The position numbers and the translations under genes are program-made. Positions 1-9,732 of a stretch of DNA of 9,732 nucleotides are shown here, piece after piece (the stretch's first letter is position 1; every line of letters starts with the position of its first letter). The notes below the pieces were generated by a model, which did not search any database, had not been told where the DNA came from, and saw nothing but the letters and a program-made list of their open reading frames with translations. The DNA is from a virus. Taxonomy: Duplodnaviria; Heunggongvirae; Uroviricota; Caudoviricetes. The DNA is taken from the IMG/VR virus record IMGVR_UViG_2671180415_000013. One strand, given 5' to 3'.

Positions 1-91
1 GCTGTCGTTCTCAAAATCGGTGGAGCTGCATGACAAAGTCATCGGGCATTATCTGAACATAAAACACTATCAATAAGTTGGAGTCATTACC
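1..91 (+). mobile_element. IS1 right-end fragment (3' terminus with right inverted repeat at about 69-91); the window starts inside the element
   Basis: Positions 69-91 (atcaataagttggagtcattacc) match the IS1 right terminal repeat as I recall it, and are an imperfect inverse of the left repeat at 9643-9665. The preceding reading frame ends with the InsB C-terminus. Recognition is from memory, not a search. Confidence 0.8.
2..76 (+). CDS. insB: IS1 transposase InsB, C-terminal fragment (5' end lies outside the window)
   Basis: Frame 2 translates to ...LSFSKSVELHDKVIGHYLNIKHYQ followed by TAA at 74-76, which matches the InsB C-terminus as I remember it. The fragment is too short to appear in the ORF track. 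Confidence 0.7.
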   Translation: MSFSKSVELHDKVIGHYLNIKHYQ

Positions 92-3976: not shown

Positions 3977-4725
3977 ATGAAAAACATTGCGGCAGCCGGG
4001 GTTCTTGAACGTATTCACAGNNNNNNNNNNNNNNNNNNNNNNNNNNNNNNNNNNNNNNNNNNNNNNNNNNNNNNNNNNNNNNNNNNNNNNNNNNNNNNNN
4101 NNNNNNNNNNNNNNNNNNNNNNNNNNNNNNNNNNNNNNNNNNNNNNNNNNNNNNNNNNNNNNNNNNNNNNNNNNNNNNNNNNNNNNNNNNNNNNNNNNNN
4201 NNNNNNNNNNNNNNNNNNNNNNNNNNNNNNNNNNNNNNNNNNNNNNNNNNNNNNNNNNNNNNNNNNNNNNNNNNNNNNNNNNNNNNNNNTGTGTTCAGCG
4301 GTAAAACCGGCACCGGGAAAAATCACCTTGCAGCGGCGATGGGTAACCGGCTGATGGCGAAGGGGCGCAGCGTGATTATCGTCACCGAGTCTGATGTCAT
4401 GAGCGTGTTGCATGACAGCTACGACAACGGCAAATCCGGTGAAAAATTTTTACAGGAGCTTTGCGGGGTTGATTTGCTGGTCCTGGATGAAATAGGCATT
4501 CAGCGGGAGACGAAAAACGAGCAGGTGGTATTGCACCAGATAATTGATCGCCGGACAGCATCACTGTGCAGTGTCGGGATGTTAACAAACCTGAATCATG
4601 CCGCAATGAGCACGCTTCTTGGTGAGAGGATTATGGACCGCATGACCATGAACGGTTGTCGGTGGGTGACGTTTAACTGGGATAGCTGGCGTTCAAATGT
4701 CAGCTTTCCGGGAGTTGTGAAGTAA
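3977..4725 (+). CDS. dnaC: DnaC-like helicase loader (AAA+ ATPase), interrupted by an N-run
   Basis: The N-terminus starts MKN like E. coli DnaC. After the gap, FSGKTGTGKNHLAAAMGNRLMAKGRSV...LLVLDEIGIQRETKNEQVVLHQIIDRR...GMLTNLNHAAMSTLLGERIMDRM...WVTFNWDSWRS closely matches DnaC Walker A/B and C-terminal motifs as I recall them. SD GGGGGTGAT precedes the ATG at 3977, and the O-like stop is at 3968-3970. The two sides of the gap are in different frames, so the N-run length is not the true length. Confidence 0.85.
4021..4289. other. Run of 269 N (assembly gap or masked segment) inside the DnaC-like gene
   Basis: Literal n characters in the sequence. Confidence 0.99.
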
Positions 4726-5487: not shown

Positions 5488-5892
5488 ATGGCAAAAGTAT
5501 TTACACAGGAAGAGCGGGAAAAAATTAAGGGGCAGGTTGTTGAACTCGTACGCCAGAGTGGGCGCGAGACGTTACGACAACTGGAAGCTAAAANNNNNNN
5601 NNNNNNNNNNNNNNNNNNNNNNNNNNNNNNNNNNNNNNNNNNNNNNNNNNNNNNNNNNNNNNNNNNNNNNNNNNNNNNNNNNNNNNNNNNNNNNNNNNNN
5701 NNNNNNNNNNNNNNNNNNNNNNNNNNNNNNNNNNNNNNNNNNNNNNNNNNNNNNNNNNNNNNNNNNNNNNNNNNNNNNNNNNNNNNNNNNNNNNNNNNNN
5801 NNNNNNNNNNNNNNNNNNNNNNNNNNNNNNNNNNNNNNNNNNNNNNNNNNNNNNNNNNNNNNNNNNNNNNNNNNNNAGTGCCGGAAGAGTGA
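5488..5892 (+). CDS. hypothetical protein whose interior is lost in an N-run (N-terminus MAKVFTQEEREKIKGQVVELVRQSGRETLRQLEAK...)
   Basis: ATG at 5488 follows a G-rich stretch. The frame appears continuous across the N-run to a TGA at 5890-5892 only if the N-run length is exact, which is unknown. Product unknown. Confidence 0.35.
   Translation: MAKVFTQEEREKIKGQVVELVRQSGRETLRQLEAKXXXXXXXXXXXXXXXXXXXXXXXXXXXXXXXXXXXXXXXXXXXXXXXXXXXXXXXXXXXXXXXXXXXXXXXXXXXXXXXXXXXXXXXXXXXXXXXVPEE
5594..5876. other. Run of 283 N (assembly gap or masked segment)
   Basis: Literal n characters in the sequence. Confidence 0.99.
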
Positions 5893-6007: not shown

Positions 6008-6364
6008 ATGGAAATAAAACCAGAAGATGAGTTAAGCAATATTGTTTTATTTCCGGTAAAAGAGGATAACCCTCGTAATCAGGTTAATTTTCTTTATGAG
6101 CCATCGGAAAGACCATATTGCCATCACGCTTCTGTCCGGGTTGACGAAAAAGAGCGTCAGGTCCGCTGTAAAATTTGCGGTGCAGTTGTGGAGCCATTTG
6201 ACTGGATGCTCTCTGTGGCGAAAAGAGAAACCAGACTGGCAGATGATGTAAGGCTCTTGCGCCAGGAGGAGCGGGAAAGGCGAAAAAATATAGAAAAGCT
6301 AATCCAGATTGAGCGTAATGCGAAAGCGCGGATACGCAGGGTGACAAAATATAGCCCCGAATAA
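6008..6364 (+). CDS. hypothetical small protein with a putative zinc-ribbon (C-x-HH ... C-x2-C) and a basic coiled-coil C-terminus (about 118 aa)
   Basis: Strong SD AAAGGAGAGGAGC lies immediately upstream of the ATG at 6008; the tracked ORF starts at a GTG at 5951. Motif PYCHHASVRVDEKERQVRCKICG, then an R/E/K-rich helical tail. Family not recognised. Confidence 0.55.
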   Translation: MEIKPEDELSNIVLFPVKEDNPRNQVNFLYEPSERPYCHHASVRVDEKERQVRCKICGAVVEPFDWMLSVAKRETRLADDVRLLRQEERERRKNIEKLIQIERNAKARIRRVTKYSPE

Positions 6365-6578
6365 TCAAGGTTATTTCTGGAAGTCAAGTCGTGAGTGATG
6401 AGGACTAACAAATACGGTGAACTCGATAAAGAGATTCAGGACGAACTGGAGGCCAGGAATGATTGACAAATCACCAAGTGAGTTCAGCTACAAAGATTTA
6501 TTGTCATAACGGGTTATGAGATCGACTTGGTGCGTGATATTCTTCGGGCCAGTTTGCTATGCGCCACCATGAGATGTT

Positions 6579-8411
6579 ATGGCCCGCATGTTTGATACAT
6601 TAGGATTTTACATTATGAATGTGCAACATTTTGATTTTTTTACAGATAATGAGTTTTCTAATCTGGAAAGATATCAAACTTGTAAAGCCATGGCCAAAGG
6701 TTATGCGGGCAATTACAAAACCGGGCAGTCAAGGTTGATGCATGCCCGCTCATACTGCTTCAGCATCGTAGCTGCATATTGGGATACCCTTGCAAAAAAG
6801 CAAAAAAGCAGCATTAAAATGAGGGCAGTACCGCACACTGTTTACATAGAAGACATTCCATGTGATGCACGCGAGCTCGCTGAACGAACAGGTGAGCTTA
6901 TTGCTCAATTTCCGGCGGAGGACGCTGGATATCTGATTGGGTCAATTTATACGGTAATGCTGCCATCCGCTTACCGTTCGGAATTGGGGGCTTACTATAC
7001 CCCCCCACCTTTGGTAGCGCGTCTCTTGGACCTGGCTGAAAAGTCTGGTGTTGATTTTTCTCATGCATCGGTTATTGATCCTGCGTGTGGTGGCGGTGCA
7101 TTTTTGGCACCAGTAGCCATTCGAATGTTAAAAAAAGACAAGGGGTCTTCCCCTGAATGGATGTTGAGGAGAATCAGTCGTCGTTTAAAGGGGATAGAGA
7201 TCGATCCATTTGCGGCTTGGATGAGTTTGGTATTGCTCGAATCTGTACTAATGCCACTATGTGTAAAGGTAAAACGTAGATTGCCTGAAGATACAATTAT
7301 TGTTGCTGATGCGCTTCAGCAAGATAAATTTTCTGGTTATGATCTTGTGGTAGGGAATCCGCCTTACGGACGTGTCACTCTCGATATTAAAACGAGAGAA
7401 AAATATTCTCGTTCGTTATTTGGTCATGCAAATCTATATGGATTGTTCACCGACTTAGCTGTTCGCATGGTTAAAGAGAAAACAGGAGTTATTGCATTTC
7501 TTACGCCAACTTCTTTTCTTGGTGGGCAGTATTTCACCGCGCTGCGAACCCTTTTGACCGAAAAAACTACTCCGTATGCCCTTGATTTCGTCACTGACAG
7601 GGATGGGGTCTTTGACGATGTTCTCCAGGAAACAATGTTGACAGCATTCAAGGCGGGAGAACATAAAGTTCGGGCCCAGGTATCCTCACTTGTCCCTAAG
7701 GGGTTGAACAAAGCAAAAATTGAGAAAATAGGTAATGTTGATATAGAAAAAGGTGGAGCAACGTGGCTTTTGCCACGCGTTAAAGATGATGCCTGTTTTC
7801 TTAATGTATTAAAACAGATGTCTACGCGTTTAGCTGATCTGGGATACTCAGTCTCTACAGGTCAGTTAGTCTGGAATCGATTTAAGTCGCAGTTGCGTAC
7901 GACGAAAGGAAAAAATAGCTACCCATTAGTCTGGGCGGAATCAATAACTTCAGCTGGTTTTCGTTTTAGTGCAGACAGAAAAAATCATGTTCCCTATATC
8001 GATATAACCCCACAACAGGGTTTCCTTGTGACAAAATCTGAATGTGTGCTTGTTCAGCGGACAACATCGAAGGAACAGGACAGAAGGATTTTAGCGGCAA
8101 TTTTACCTCAGGGATTTATAGATGAAACTGGTGGCGTAGTAGTTGAAAACCATATTAATATTGTATATTCAAACGGATTGTTCTCTGCGGTTCGCCCTGA
8201 TGTTATTGATATGCTACTTAATTCGCATGTTGTCGATCGGGCGTTCAGGTGTATAAGCGGAAGTGTTGCTGTTTCGGCCTATGAATTGCATTCAATCCCG
8301 TTGCCTTCTCTGGAGCAGGTGATGGAGATTCAATCGTTAATTGATGCTGGCGTCCACAGACGGATTATTGAGAGAACTATCGCTGGTTTCTATGGAGTGA
8401 TGATTGCATGA
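6579..8411 (+). CDS. N6-adenine DNA methyltransferase, gamma-class (Eco57I/TaqI-like N6_Mtase fold) with a C-terminal target-recognition region
   Basis: Motif order X then I then IV: GAYYTPPPLVARLL (motif X), VIDPACGGGAFLAP (AdoMet-binding motif I), DLVVGNPPYGRV (catalytic NPPY motif IV), followed by about 300 aa of putative TRD. The start is uncertain among ATGs at 6579, 6588 and 6615. The TGA stop overlaps the ATG of the next gene (ATGA at 8408-8411). Confidence 0.9.
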   Translation: MARMFDTLGFYIMNVQHFDFFTDNEFSNLERYQTCKAMAKGYAGNYKTGQSRLMHARSYCFSIVAAYWDTLAKKQKSSIKMRAVPHTVYIEDIPCDARELAERTGELIAQFPAEDAGYLIGSIYTVMLPSAYRSELGAYYTPPPLVARLLDLAEKSGVDFSHASVIDPACGGGAFLAPVAIRMLKKDKGSSPEWMLRRISRRLKGIEIDPFAAWMSLVLLESVLMPLCVKVKRRLPEDTIIVADALQQDKFSGYDLVVGNPPYGRVTLDIKTREKYSRSLFGHANLYGLFTDLAVRMVKEKTGVIAFLTPTSFLGGQYFTALRTLLTEKTTPYALDFVTDRDGVFDDVLQETMLTAFKAGEHKVRAQVSSLVPKGLNKAKIEKIGNVDIEKGGATWLLPRVKDDACFLNVLKQMSTRLADLGYSVSTGQLVWNRFKSQLRTTKGKNSYPLVWAESITSAGFRFSADRKNHVPYIDITPQQGFLVTKSECVLVQRTTSKEQDRRILAAILPQGFIDETGGVVVENHINIVYSNGLFSAVRPDVIDMLLNSHVVDRAFRCISGSVAVSAYELHSIPLPSLEQVMEIQSLIDAGVHRRIIERTIAGFYGVMIA

Positions 8412-9490
8412 ATCTGCCTGTTGTTCCCCCATTGAATGTTATCCGGGAAAGATTACAATTAATTTTCCCTGAAGGGACTGAGAATCGTGGATATTTAATT
8501 CGGGAAATAGCTGCAAAAACAATTTTTGTCATGTTTTATGCTGGTGCGGTTGAGGGGCTGGGGCGATGGATAAGGCCCAGCCAGGTTGTAAGTATGGGAG
8601 ATTCGCAGGCTGCTCTTACTGATGATGCGTCCAGAGAAAGCTGGGTAAAGATGACTTTCTCTAAACAAAAGATAAGGCCTGCTGATGCATGGTATGCGGA
8701 AAATACGCGTGAGCCAATACGTGATGAAACTATAAAAAATGGCCTAATACCTTGCAATGCAATTGTTGAGCGTAAAGGTATACCCACCACATCCTCTCGT
8801 CCTCGTTACAGTTTGAATCGCTCTTTTGCAGCACTCTTTGATGCCGGGCTTGAAGGAGATTCGCTGCTGAGTGCAATAAGTTCCTGGCAAGAAAATCATT
8901 TGAACAAAGCCGCTCTTGCTAGGTTGCGTTTATTGAAATCAGGGGCAGTGATTGCTGCTGATGCCGTAGTCGTCACTTTCCCAAATGGAGAGAAGAGAAC
9001 TTTAGCTCCGGGCCCGTCAAGTACAATAGCTAAGGCCGTCATCGAAGTTTTTGCTCCTAATTTTCTTAAGAATCCAACTGTGCTCTGGTTGTCTGAATCC
9101 GGGAATAAAGTTGTTGCTCAGGATGATGTATTGGCAAAAGCATTGGGGCTGAATATTGATGCCTCAAAAGCACTTCCAGATATTATTTTGATTGATTTGG
9201 GAGAGGACCGAACGGGTTCGGACATGCTTGTAGTTTTCACTGAAGTAGTTGCGACAGATGGGCCTATAAACAGGGAACGAAAAGTTACTCTCACTCATTT
9301 GGCTATTGACGCTGGGTTCAGCGAGAAAAATCTTGCATTCCTTACGGCATTTATGGACAGAAGTGCTCTGCCTTTTAAAAAGGCAATACCAGAATTGGCG
9401 TGGGGATCTTATGCATGGTTTGCTTCTGAACCGGAGCACTTAATTGATCTTCGGGATGGTTATCCGGTAAAGATCAGCCAGAGAAAATGA
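8408..9490 (+). CDS. Uncharacterised 360-aa protein translationally coupled to the methyltransferase; candidate cognate restriction endonuclease (possibly BsuBI/PstI-like), unverified
   Basis: Confident as a gene: long ORF, same strand, 4-nt overlap with the MTase stop, GGAG 10 nt upstream, same AT-richer composition as the MTase. The function is inferred only from context; I cannot point to a canonical PD-(D/E)xK motif by eye. The segment DIILIDLGEDRTGSDMLVVFTEVVATDG is a possible degenerate nuclease core. Confidence 0.6.
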   Translation: MNLPVVPPLNVIRERLQLIFPEGTENRGYLIREIAAKTIFVMFYAGAVEGLGRWIRPSQVVSMGDSQAALTDDASRESWVKMTFSKQKIRPADAWYAENTREPIRDETIKNGLIPCNAIVERKGIPTTSSRPRYSLNRSFAALFDAGLEGDSLLSAISSWQENHLNKAALARLRLLKSGAVIAADAVVVTFPNGEKRTLAPGPSSTIAKAVIEVFAPNFLKNPTVLWLSESGNKVVAQDDVLAKALGLNIDASKALPDIILIDLGEDRTGSDMLVVFTEVVATDGPINRERKVTLTHLAIDAGFSEKNLAFLTAFMDRSALPFKKAIPELAWGSYAWFASEPEHLIDLRDGYPVKISQRK

Positions 9491-9642
9491 CCAAAGTTTG
9501 ATATCCGCCACGCCCTGAAGGATGGGGGTTTTACGGTGCACTGGATAAAAAATCGGTTTCATAGATTTGCCCACCGTGGTATACGCCTGCGATAAAAACT
9601 TTATTGTCATCAACGGCAAAAGCAATAATTGTTCTGTGGCGG

Positions 9643-9732
9643 GGTGATGCTGCCAACTTACTGATTTAGTGTATGATGGTGTTTTTGAGGTGCTCCAGTG
9701 GCTTCTGTTTCTATCAGCTGTCCCTCCTGTTC
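9643..9732 (+). mobile_element. IS1 left-end fragment (left inverted repeat 9643-9665 and start of insA); the window ends inside the element
   Basis: GGTGATGCTGCCAACTTACTGAT at 9643-9665 matches the IS1 left terminal repeat as I recall it. It is followed by tttagtgtatgatggtgtttttgaggtgctccaGTGgcttctgtttctatcagctgtccctcctg, which encodes the InsA N-terminus. Confidence 0.85.
9698..9732 (+). CDS. insA: IS1 InsA N-terminal fragment (3' end lies outside the window)
   Basis: GTG at 9698, then ASVSISCPSC..., the InsA zinc-finger N-terminus. Confidence 0.75.
   Translation, partial: MASVSISCPSC

Follow-up and report, generated by a model that had tools for sequence, protein, structure and literature searches.

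The window analysed here is a 9,732-nucleotide stretch of viral DNA (IMG/VR record IMGVR_UViG_2671180415_000013, Caudoviricetes). It carries two co-oriented genes, one for an N6-adenine DNA methyltransferase (MTase) and one, directly downstream, for a 360-aa protein in which a preliminary description, made from the letters alone, had recognised no family. We found this partner to be a Type II restriction endonuclease (REase) of the BsuBI/PstI/SdaI family, so that the two genes form a restriction-modification (R-M) pair. Both open reading frames (ORFs) and the four-base overlap that joins them were present where that description had placed them. All mapped features are collected in Table 1.

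Table 1. Features of the R-M pair, its protein domains and motifs, and the edges of the inserted block
Feature	Position	Strand	Remarks
Gamma-class N6-adenine DNA methyltransferase (MTase)	6579..8411	+	610 aa as annotated; likely start ATG 6615, giving 598 aa
YYTPP motif, MTase residues 139-143	6993..7007	+	
Motif I, S-adenosylmethionine (AdoMet) binding, DPACGGGAF, MTase residues 167-175	7077..7103	+	
Motif IV, catalytic, NPPYG, MTase residues 260-264	7356..7370	+	
ATGA, overlap of MTase stop and REase start	8408..8411	+	GGAG 10 nt upstream of REase ATG
Type II restriction endonuclease (REase), BsuBI/PstI/SdaI family, 360 aa	8408..9490	+	Pfam, PADLOC, SdaI 2ixs, RefSeq name
N-terminal helix-turn-helix (HTH) DNA-binding domain, REase residues 10-172	8435..8923	+	Pfam PF17728
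Conserved putative recognition helix, Y96..R110 of REase	8693-8737	+	R101, R105 invariant; E102 nearly invariant
C-terminal PD-(D/E)XK-type catalytic domain, REase residues 188-349	8969..9454	+	Pfam PF06616
REase P257-D258	9176-9181	+	
REase E279	9242-9244	+	
Non-coding leader of inserted R-M module	6369..6614	+	Left cargo boundary ~6368/6369
parE remnant, C-terminal 36 codons, neighbouring toxin gene	9531..9641	-	Cut by IS1; right edge of R-M cargo
IS1 end	9643..9732	.	Chromosomal genes directly after in complete S. sonnei genomes

The 360-aa partner is firmly assigned to the BsuBI/PstI/SdaI family. Both Pfam domains of the family scored far above the gathering cut-off, which is 27 bits for each: BsuBI_PstI_RE_N (PF17728) reached 106.6 bits (E = 1.2e-30) over residues 10-172 and profile positions 2-136 of 140, and BsuBI_PstI_RE (PF06616) reached 152.2 bits (E = 9.3e-45) over residues 188-349 and profile positions 2-152 of 154. 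Against PADLOC the protein matched the subfamily-specific model REase_II PDLC03589 (2.8e-128, positions 3-350 of 364), with the PstI-like and SdaI-like models matching more weakly. The sole sequence match in the Protein Data Bank (PDB) was SdaI (2ixs; E 1.8e-16, residues 96-349). AlphaFold2 gave a predicted local distance difference test score (pLDDT) of 35 from the single sequence and a mean of 91.2 with a 70-sequence alignment, and in a Foldseek search of the PDB with the latter model 2ixs_A alone was significant (E 3e-17, probability 1.00, 375 aligned columns), the runner-up standing at E 0.33. The profile search and structure prediction that the preliminary description had proposed for this protein thus found a restriction-endonuclease family and the SdaI fold, and a BsuBI/PstI-type endonuclease, which it had offered as one guess, proved correct. 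RefSeq already lists an identical protein under the name 'BsuBI/PstI family type II restriction endonuclease [Shigella sonnei]', and the Prokaryotic Genome Annotation Pipeline (PGAP) uses the same BsuBI/PstI family name in Escherichia coli FDAARGOS_943 (WP_001053102.1). Relatives of the REase number 3724 at E <= 1e-5 among the candidates scored, and an exhaustive search gave 1004 clusters at 50% identity (E <= 0.001).

For the upstream protein, motif content and database matches support the gamma-class N6-adenine methyltransferase that had been proposed. YYTPP, DPACGGGAF and NPPYG are all present in gamma-class order, with motif I (FxGxG-like) and motif IV ((D/N)PP(Y/F)) followed by a long C-terminal target-recognition region, and residues 285-588 align with the portion of both TIGR02987 and the PstI-like MTase that contains the target-recognition domain. 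Pfam (Eco57I, PF07669, 1.7e-13; N6_Mtase, 2.1e-9, a partial match over profile positions 6-183 of 311), PADLOC (MTase_II PDLC03338, 4.3e-300, full length) and the M.TaqI structures in the PDB (3e-8) agree with this assignment. The true start of the gene is probably 6615, 12 codons downstream of the annotated 6579, because homologues are nearly all 598 aa long and begin at Met13 of the annotated ORF (MNVQHFDF), and because AGGA lies 9 nt 5' of the ATG at 6615 as a ribosome-binding site for the shorter protein. Relative to a form shared by multiple species of Enterobacteriaceae, the MTase of the window carries A339T (nt 7593-7595) and N571H (nt 8289-8291); both changes lie outside the catalytic motifs, and the exact variant is on record on a single contig.

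The two genes are joined at the sequence ...ATTGCATGAATCTG..., where the codons run ...ATT GCA TGA / ATG AAT CTG..., an arrangement that supports the translationally coupled operon of MTase and effector first suggested for the locus. The order recurs widely. Of 80 related loci in species-representative genomes, 76 have an MTase homologue immediately upstream of the REase homologue and in the same orientation; among these genomes are Burkholderia, Sphingomonas, Pseudomonas and Caulobacter. The remaining four loci comprised a contig edge, a partial REase, a 2.3-kb gap and fragmentary alignments. The best match in these genomes, a set without the source genome, was 68% identical. We found the MTase-then-REase pair on a Burkholderia cepacia chromosome and, at 89% protein identity, in the nin region of a lambdoid Kluyvera prophage. 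Compared with the Kluyvera copy, the ratio of nonsynonymous to synonymous substitution rates (dN/dS) was 0.055 for the REase and 0.056 for the MTase, and both genes are under strong purifying selection. Neither the window nor the homologous loci contained hsdS or hsdR, and the organisation is that of a Type II system, with an adjacent, co-oriented cognate MTase and without specificity or translocase subunits. A search for a controller (C) gene upstream of the MTase in 6369..6614 found none, this interval having no + strand ORF of at least 60 aa. In Burkholderia homologues, a 78-aa HTH ORF ends 4 nt before the MTase (locus L005, 3965-4201) and is a candidate C protein; it is absent from the enterobacterial versions of the module. 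A P2-like prophage of Serratia marcescens has a further copy of the module, with 75% REase identity, in a variable region flanked by the gpA replication gene and the portal gene (locus L008, 4208-7083). The module thus passes from one accessory slot to another even where the phages are of unrelated types.

Conserved residues of the REase fall in both of its domains. P257-D258 and E279 align with P232-D233 and E248 of SdaI, as well as with the corresponding residues of the related enzyme from Stx phages, and 68 of 70 diverse relatives share them. D233 and E248 are the acidic active-site residues of SdaI. Four residues (R101, R105, E279 and R291) are invariant among the 70 relatives and three more (E102, P257 and D258) are at least 90% conserved; the window REase has all seven. 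R101, E102 and R105 sit in a segment of the form Y-A-x-N-(S/T)-R-E-x-(I/F)-R, which we take to correspond to the winged-helix recognition helix of SdaI. The preliminary description had seen no clean PD-(D/E)xK signature because the family uses a variant of it: the canonical lysine is indeed absent, but the variant itself, PD257-258 with E279, is present. Residues 279-284 read EVVATD (nt 9242-9259), with Asp284 at the position of Lys253 in SdaI. The source of the usual catalytic lysine function is not evident from the REase sequence; conserved candidates are K234 and R291.

The pair is hosted by a lambdoid, Qin-like prophage remnant of Shigella sonnei; the genes around it are the early region of that prophage, and the module occupies the variable accessory (nin-region) slot. 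The window is 99.97% identical to complete S. sonnei genomes of 4.8-5.0 Mb. By megablast, similarity to 2331 E. coli genomes ends at window positions 6350-6368; the match to other E. coli prophages, more than 2300 of them, breaks off at ~6368 and is taken up again only at parE, at ~9545. This break in homology delimits a 3.2-kb insert that holds the MTase and REase genes only, and it bears out the earlier suggestion that the block is horizontally acquired cargo. The contrast in GC content cited for that suggestion was right for the pair, which had been put at 43% (43.2% in the MTase, 44.3% in the REase, 43.8% over the whole inserted block 6369-9530), but overstated for the replication genes, which had been put at 58%. 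These have 54.7% (O-like), 51.4% (DnaC-like) and 53.2% (DUF1627), and 58-61% is reached just in local 400-nt windows. Since the immunity region (1-2900) has 45.9% GC, the R-M block is not uniquely AT-rich in the window, and separate acquisition is better supported by homology than by base composition. In E. coli FDAARGOS_943 an intact parDE lies at the matching place, so that the slot reads MTase, REase, parDE; a related prophage has DUF7167, small ORFs and hokD in this slot instead of the pair. The assembly collection has an identical REase in 4192 of its blocks, and at least 1000 contigs are on record with it; the module is near-identical in the six complete or near-complete S. sonnei assemblies that we aligned. 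It is present in just 2 of 5426 complete E. coli genomes, and no deposited phage genome gave a DNA-level match to it.

The right-hand IS1 end has a counterpart at window positions 1-91; the window thus has an IS1 end on either side, and the breaks in the contig are at repeats. Directly after the right-hand IS1, complete S. sonnei genomes have genes for mannitol dehydrogenase, ydfZ, a GntR regulator, a short-chain dehydrogenase/reductase and dcp (locus L093, 9291-10052). These are chromosomal genes, and the late half of the prophage (Q, lysis and structural genes) has therefore been deleted; the deletion ends ~150 bp past the REase stop codon. The remaining neighbours in the window are DUF1391, a ParE-PaaA2-HTH regulator module, a cro-like gene, YdaT, a replisome organiser, a DnaC/IstB-like ATPase, DUF1627 and DUF977. 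The ParE-PaaA2-HTH module occupies 1033-2067 on the - strand and encodes a ParE toxin of 96 aa (PF05016), a PaaA2-type antitoxin of 64 aa (PF21217) and an HTH regulator of 176 aa; this trio, next to the cro-like gene and at the usual place of the cI repressor, looks like a toxin-antitoxin system of the paaR2-paaA2-parE2 type. Masked runs of N occur at 4021-4289 (DnaC-like gene) and 5594-5876 (DUF977 region), and ORF calls across them are artefacts.

We consider it very probable that the locus is a conventional two-gene Type II R-M system of the PstI/BsuBI/SdaI family, carried as prophage accessory cargo in S. sonnei. The family of both proteins, the fold of the REase, the invariant residues, the MTase-then-REase operon, the purifying selection and the boundaries of the module are all established here. 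In such a system the MTase would methylate the adenine of the target site and so shield the host's own copies, and the REase would be made by translational coupling from a transcript shared with the MTase. The N-terminal HTH domain of the REase would read the site, and its C-terminal PD-(D/E)XK-variant domain would cut unmethylated incoming DNA. We infer that S. sonnei has both enzymes in active form and expresses the pair from a promoter of its own in the repressed prophage; the pair would also restrict phage and act as an addiction module.

Several observations weigh against this reading. The global template modelling score (TM-score) between the REase model and SdaI is just 0.40-0.45, which we attribute to the two domains being oriented differently to each other in the predicted structure. 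The position of Lys251 in SdaI is taken by Ala282, and we considered whether the missing catalytic lysine marks an inactive or unusual nuclease. We rejected this, given that alanine occupies the position in 41 of 41 subfamily members sampled and threonine in the PstI-like enzyme of Stx2a phages (ESVTSHGP); because that enzyme, reported active, also has no lysine there, the absence is a family trait and no sign of inactivation. A scan of the + strand over 6369-6614 found no consensus sigma-70 promoter upstream of the MTase, and in a promoter and terminator scan promoter-like sites were no commoner than in shuffled sequence. The two genes belong to the rightward early operon, normally kept repressed in a lysogen, and the host prophage is a decayed, truncated remnant bounded by IS1 in a species prone to pseudogenes. 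In one S. sonnei assembly (L095, 6209-8004), a 1-bp indel splits the MTase into ORFs of 133 and 428 aa beside an intact REase, which if real would imply an inactive or silent REase, and some S. sonnei assemblies likewise have truncated or split MTase calls next to an intact REase. The lack of a promoter-like site, the repressed operon, the truncated prophage and the split MTase calls would suit a relic that is genetically intact and functionally silent, its R-M genes not expressed or its nuclease inactive in a cryptic prophage. We think such a relic unlikely, as both ORFs are full length and keep all family-invariant residues, near-identity holds across the six aligned assemblies and the identical REase recurs on at least 1000 contigs, and a dN/dS of ~0.055 denotes long-term constraint on both genes. 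The split in L095 is likely a sequencing error because other genes of that assembly are split too; more generally, the split genes come from assemblies with other obvious frameshifts, and many of the 'partial' entries are contig ends. A different alternative is that the pair belongs to an undescribed MTase-associated defence (BREX-, MADS- or Type I/IIG-like), the partner being the effector of an uncharacterised system, as the preliminary description had also proposed when it rated the locus the likeliest place in the window for something new. Weak partial matches of the MTase to PglX of BREX and to MAD2 (17-37 bits in NCBIfam), a PADLOC mad2 match at 1.4e-16 and the PGAP label 'HsdM family' point that way. 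However, the PglX and MAD2 matches cover the shared methyltransferase core only and compare with curated NCBIfam cut-offs of 400-900 bits, the mapped 3.2-kb module contains no other BREX, MADS or Type I genes, the same two-gene module stands in 76 of the 80 related loci, and the partner is a bona fide member of a Type II REase family. BREX and MADS were rejected on these scores together with the lack of their other genes in the module, and Type I R-M (HsdM) on the lack of hsdS and hsdR together with the partial N6_Mtase match. We regard an undescribed defence as exceedingly improbable. The locus is already known as an ordinary Type II R-M pair, correctly labelled by Pfam, PGAP and PADLOC, and is catalogued and named in public databases, so the expectation of an undescribed system did not hold.

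Within the conventional Type II reading, the recognition sequence is the point on which we are least firm. To our knowledge, all characterised relatives (PstI, BsuBI, EcoGIII and SdaI) recognise CTGCAG or CCTGCAGG. PstI isoschizomers have been reported from many enteric bacteria. Because characterised relatives recognise CTGCAG-containing sites and because R101, E102 and R105 are conserved, we lean slightly, by analogy, towards a CTGCAG-type target with a methylated adenine. A classical Type II system of the same family with some other specificity is possible and would not greatly surprise us, although it is not what we expect. The REase is 27% identical to the CTGCAG-specific Stx-phage enzyme and 20% identical to SdaI; the MTase is ~110 aa longer than the PstI-like one and differs in its N-terminal region; residues 106-107 of the putative recognition helix are Asp-Glu, as against Arg-Gln and Lys-Lys in the CTGCAG-type enzymes; and PADLOC keeps separate models for the window subfamily, the PstI-like and the SdaI-like enzymes. 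In favour of the shared site, the helix residues (S/T)100, R101, E102 and R105 are conserved family-wide, and every characterised member known to us, that of PMC3893438 included, recognises a site containing CTGCAG. Site counts do not separate these possibilities: CTGCAG occurs twice in the window and not at all in the 3.2-kb cargo, which is too short to discriminate, as 41 of the 64 palindromic hexamers are absent from it, and S. sonnei gained the module too recently for site avoidance. A literature search found no description of this R-M system, of its motif or of an S. sonnei methylation motif, and the searches made found no characterised member of the subfamily with proteins of ~360 and 598 aa. 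ATGCAT methylation in E. coli has been attributed to the EcoKII MTase, which is unrelated. It is conceivable, if doubtful, that this widespread proteobacterial subfamily has a non-CTGCAG specificity, which would be new for the family, and that the pair also acts as an addiction module of S. sonnei. An addiction role could explain why the IS1-mediated deletion stopped 150 bp past the stop codon, and S. sonnei would then have a species-wide extra pattern of N6-methyladenine (m6A).

The module is apparently carried by essentially the whole of the heavily sequenced S. sonnei population. An active pair would give S. sonnei a specific m6A mark and a barrier to phage, plasmid and laboratory DNA. Its value as a discovery is small and its practical interest modest.

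Among known systems, SdaI (PDB 2ixs; CCTGCA^GG) is the sole solved relative of the REase by both sequence and fold. The two enzymes have the same two-domain plan, with an N-terminal HTH and a C-terminal PD-(D/E)XK-variant nuclease, and have in common the PD and E residues and an R-E-x-x-R helix motif. They differ in that identity is ~20% and the window REase exceeds SdaI by 37-40 aa and has an additional segment at its N terminus; Lys251 and Lys253 of SdaI are replaced by Ala282 and Asp284, and the predicted orientation of the domains is different, as the TM-score reflects.

The EcoGIII-type PstI/BsuBI system of Stx2a prophages (CTGCAG; m6A) is likewise among the nearest known systems. In that system CTGCAG is methylated, the REase gene is biochemically active and the host methylome is shaped by the pair (PMC3893438). 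Like the window pair, it is prophage-borne in lambdoid phages of E. coli and Shigella, with the MTase gene first and the genes overlapping. Both the REase (27% identity) and the MTase (25% identity, E 9e-27, residues 240-584) match the Stx2a-phage pair, and the two window genes are therefore distant homologues of a characterised PstI-type system. The Stx2a-phage proteins nonetheless belong to a different subfamily (a 317-aa REase and a 489-aa MTase), their genes lie directly downstream of cI whereas the window pair follows the replication genes, and the two modules have no similarity at the DNA level.

Fused enzymes of the same family, represented by PADLOC PDLC03359 (840 positions) and phrog_1639 (838 positions), match the MTase with their N-terminal half and the REase with their C-terminal part, whereas in the window the two activities are on separate, translationally coupled polypeptides. 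We take YenI-type enzymes to be fused MTase-REase proteins of the PstI/BsuBI/SdaI family. The 609-aa MTase of Vibrio mimicus is 60% identical to that of the window. SGI1-related genomic islands (AGI1 A025-A026 and relatives) carry a BsuBI/PstI REase and an N-6 DNA methylase as putative R-M cargo (PMC9035990). By description, this two-gene cargo, found on mobile elements in Enterobacteriaceae and Vibrio, is of the same kind as the window pair; its carrier is an integrative mobilisable island, whereas that of the window pair is a prophage.

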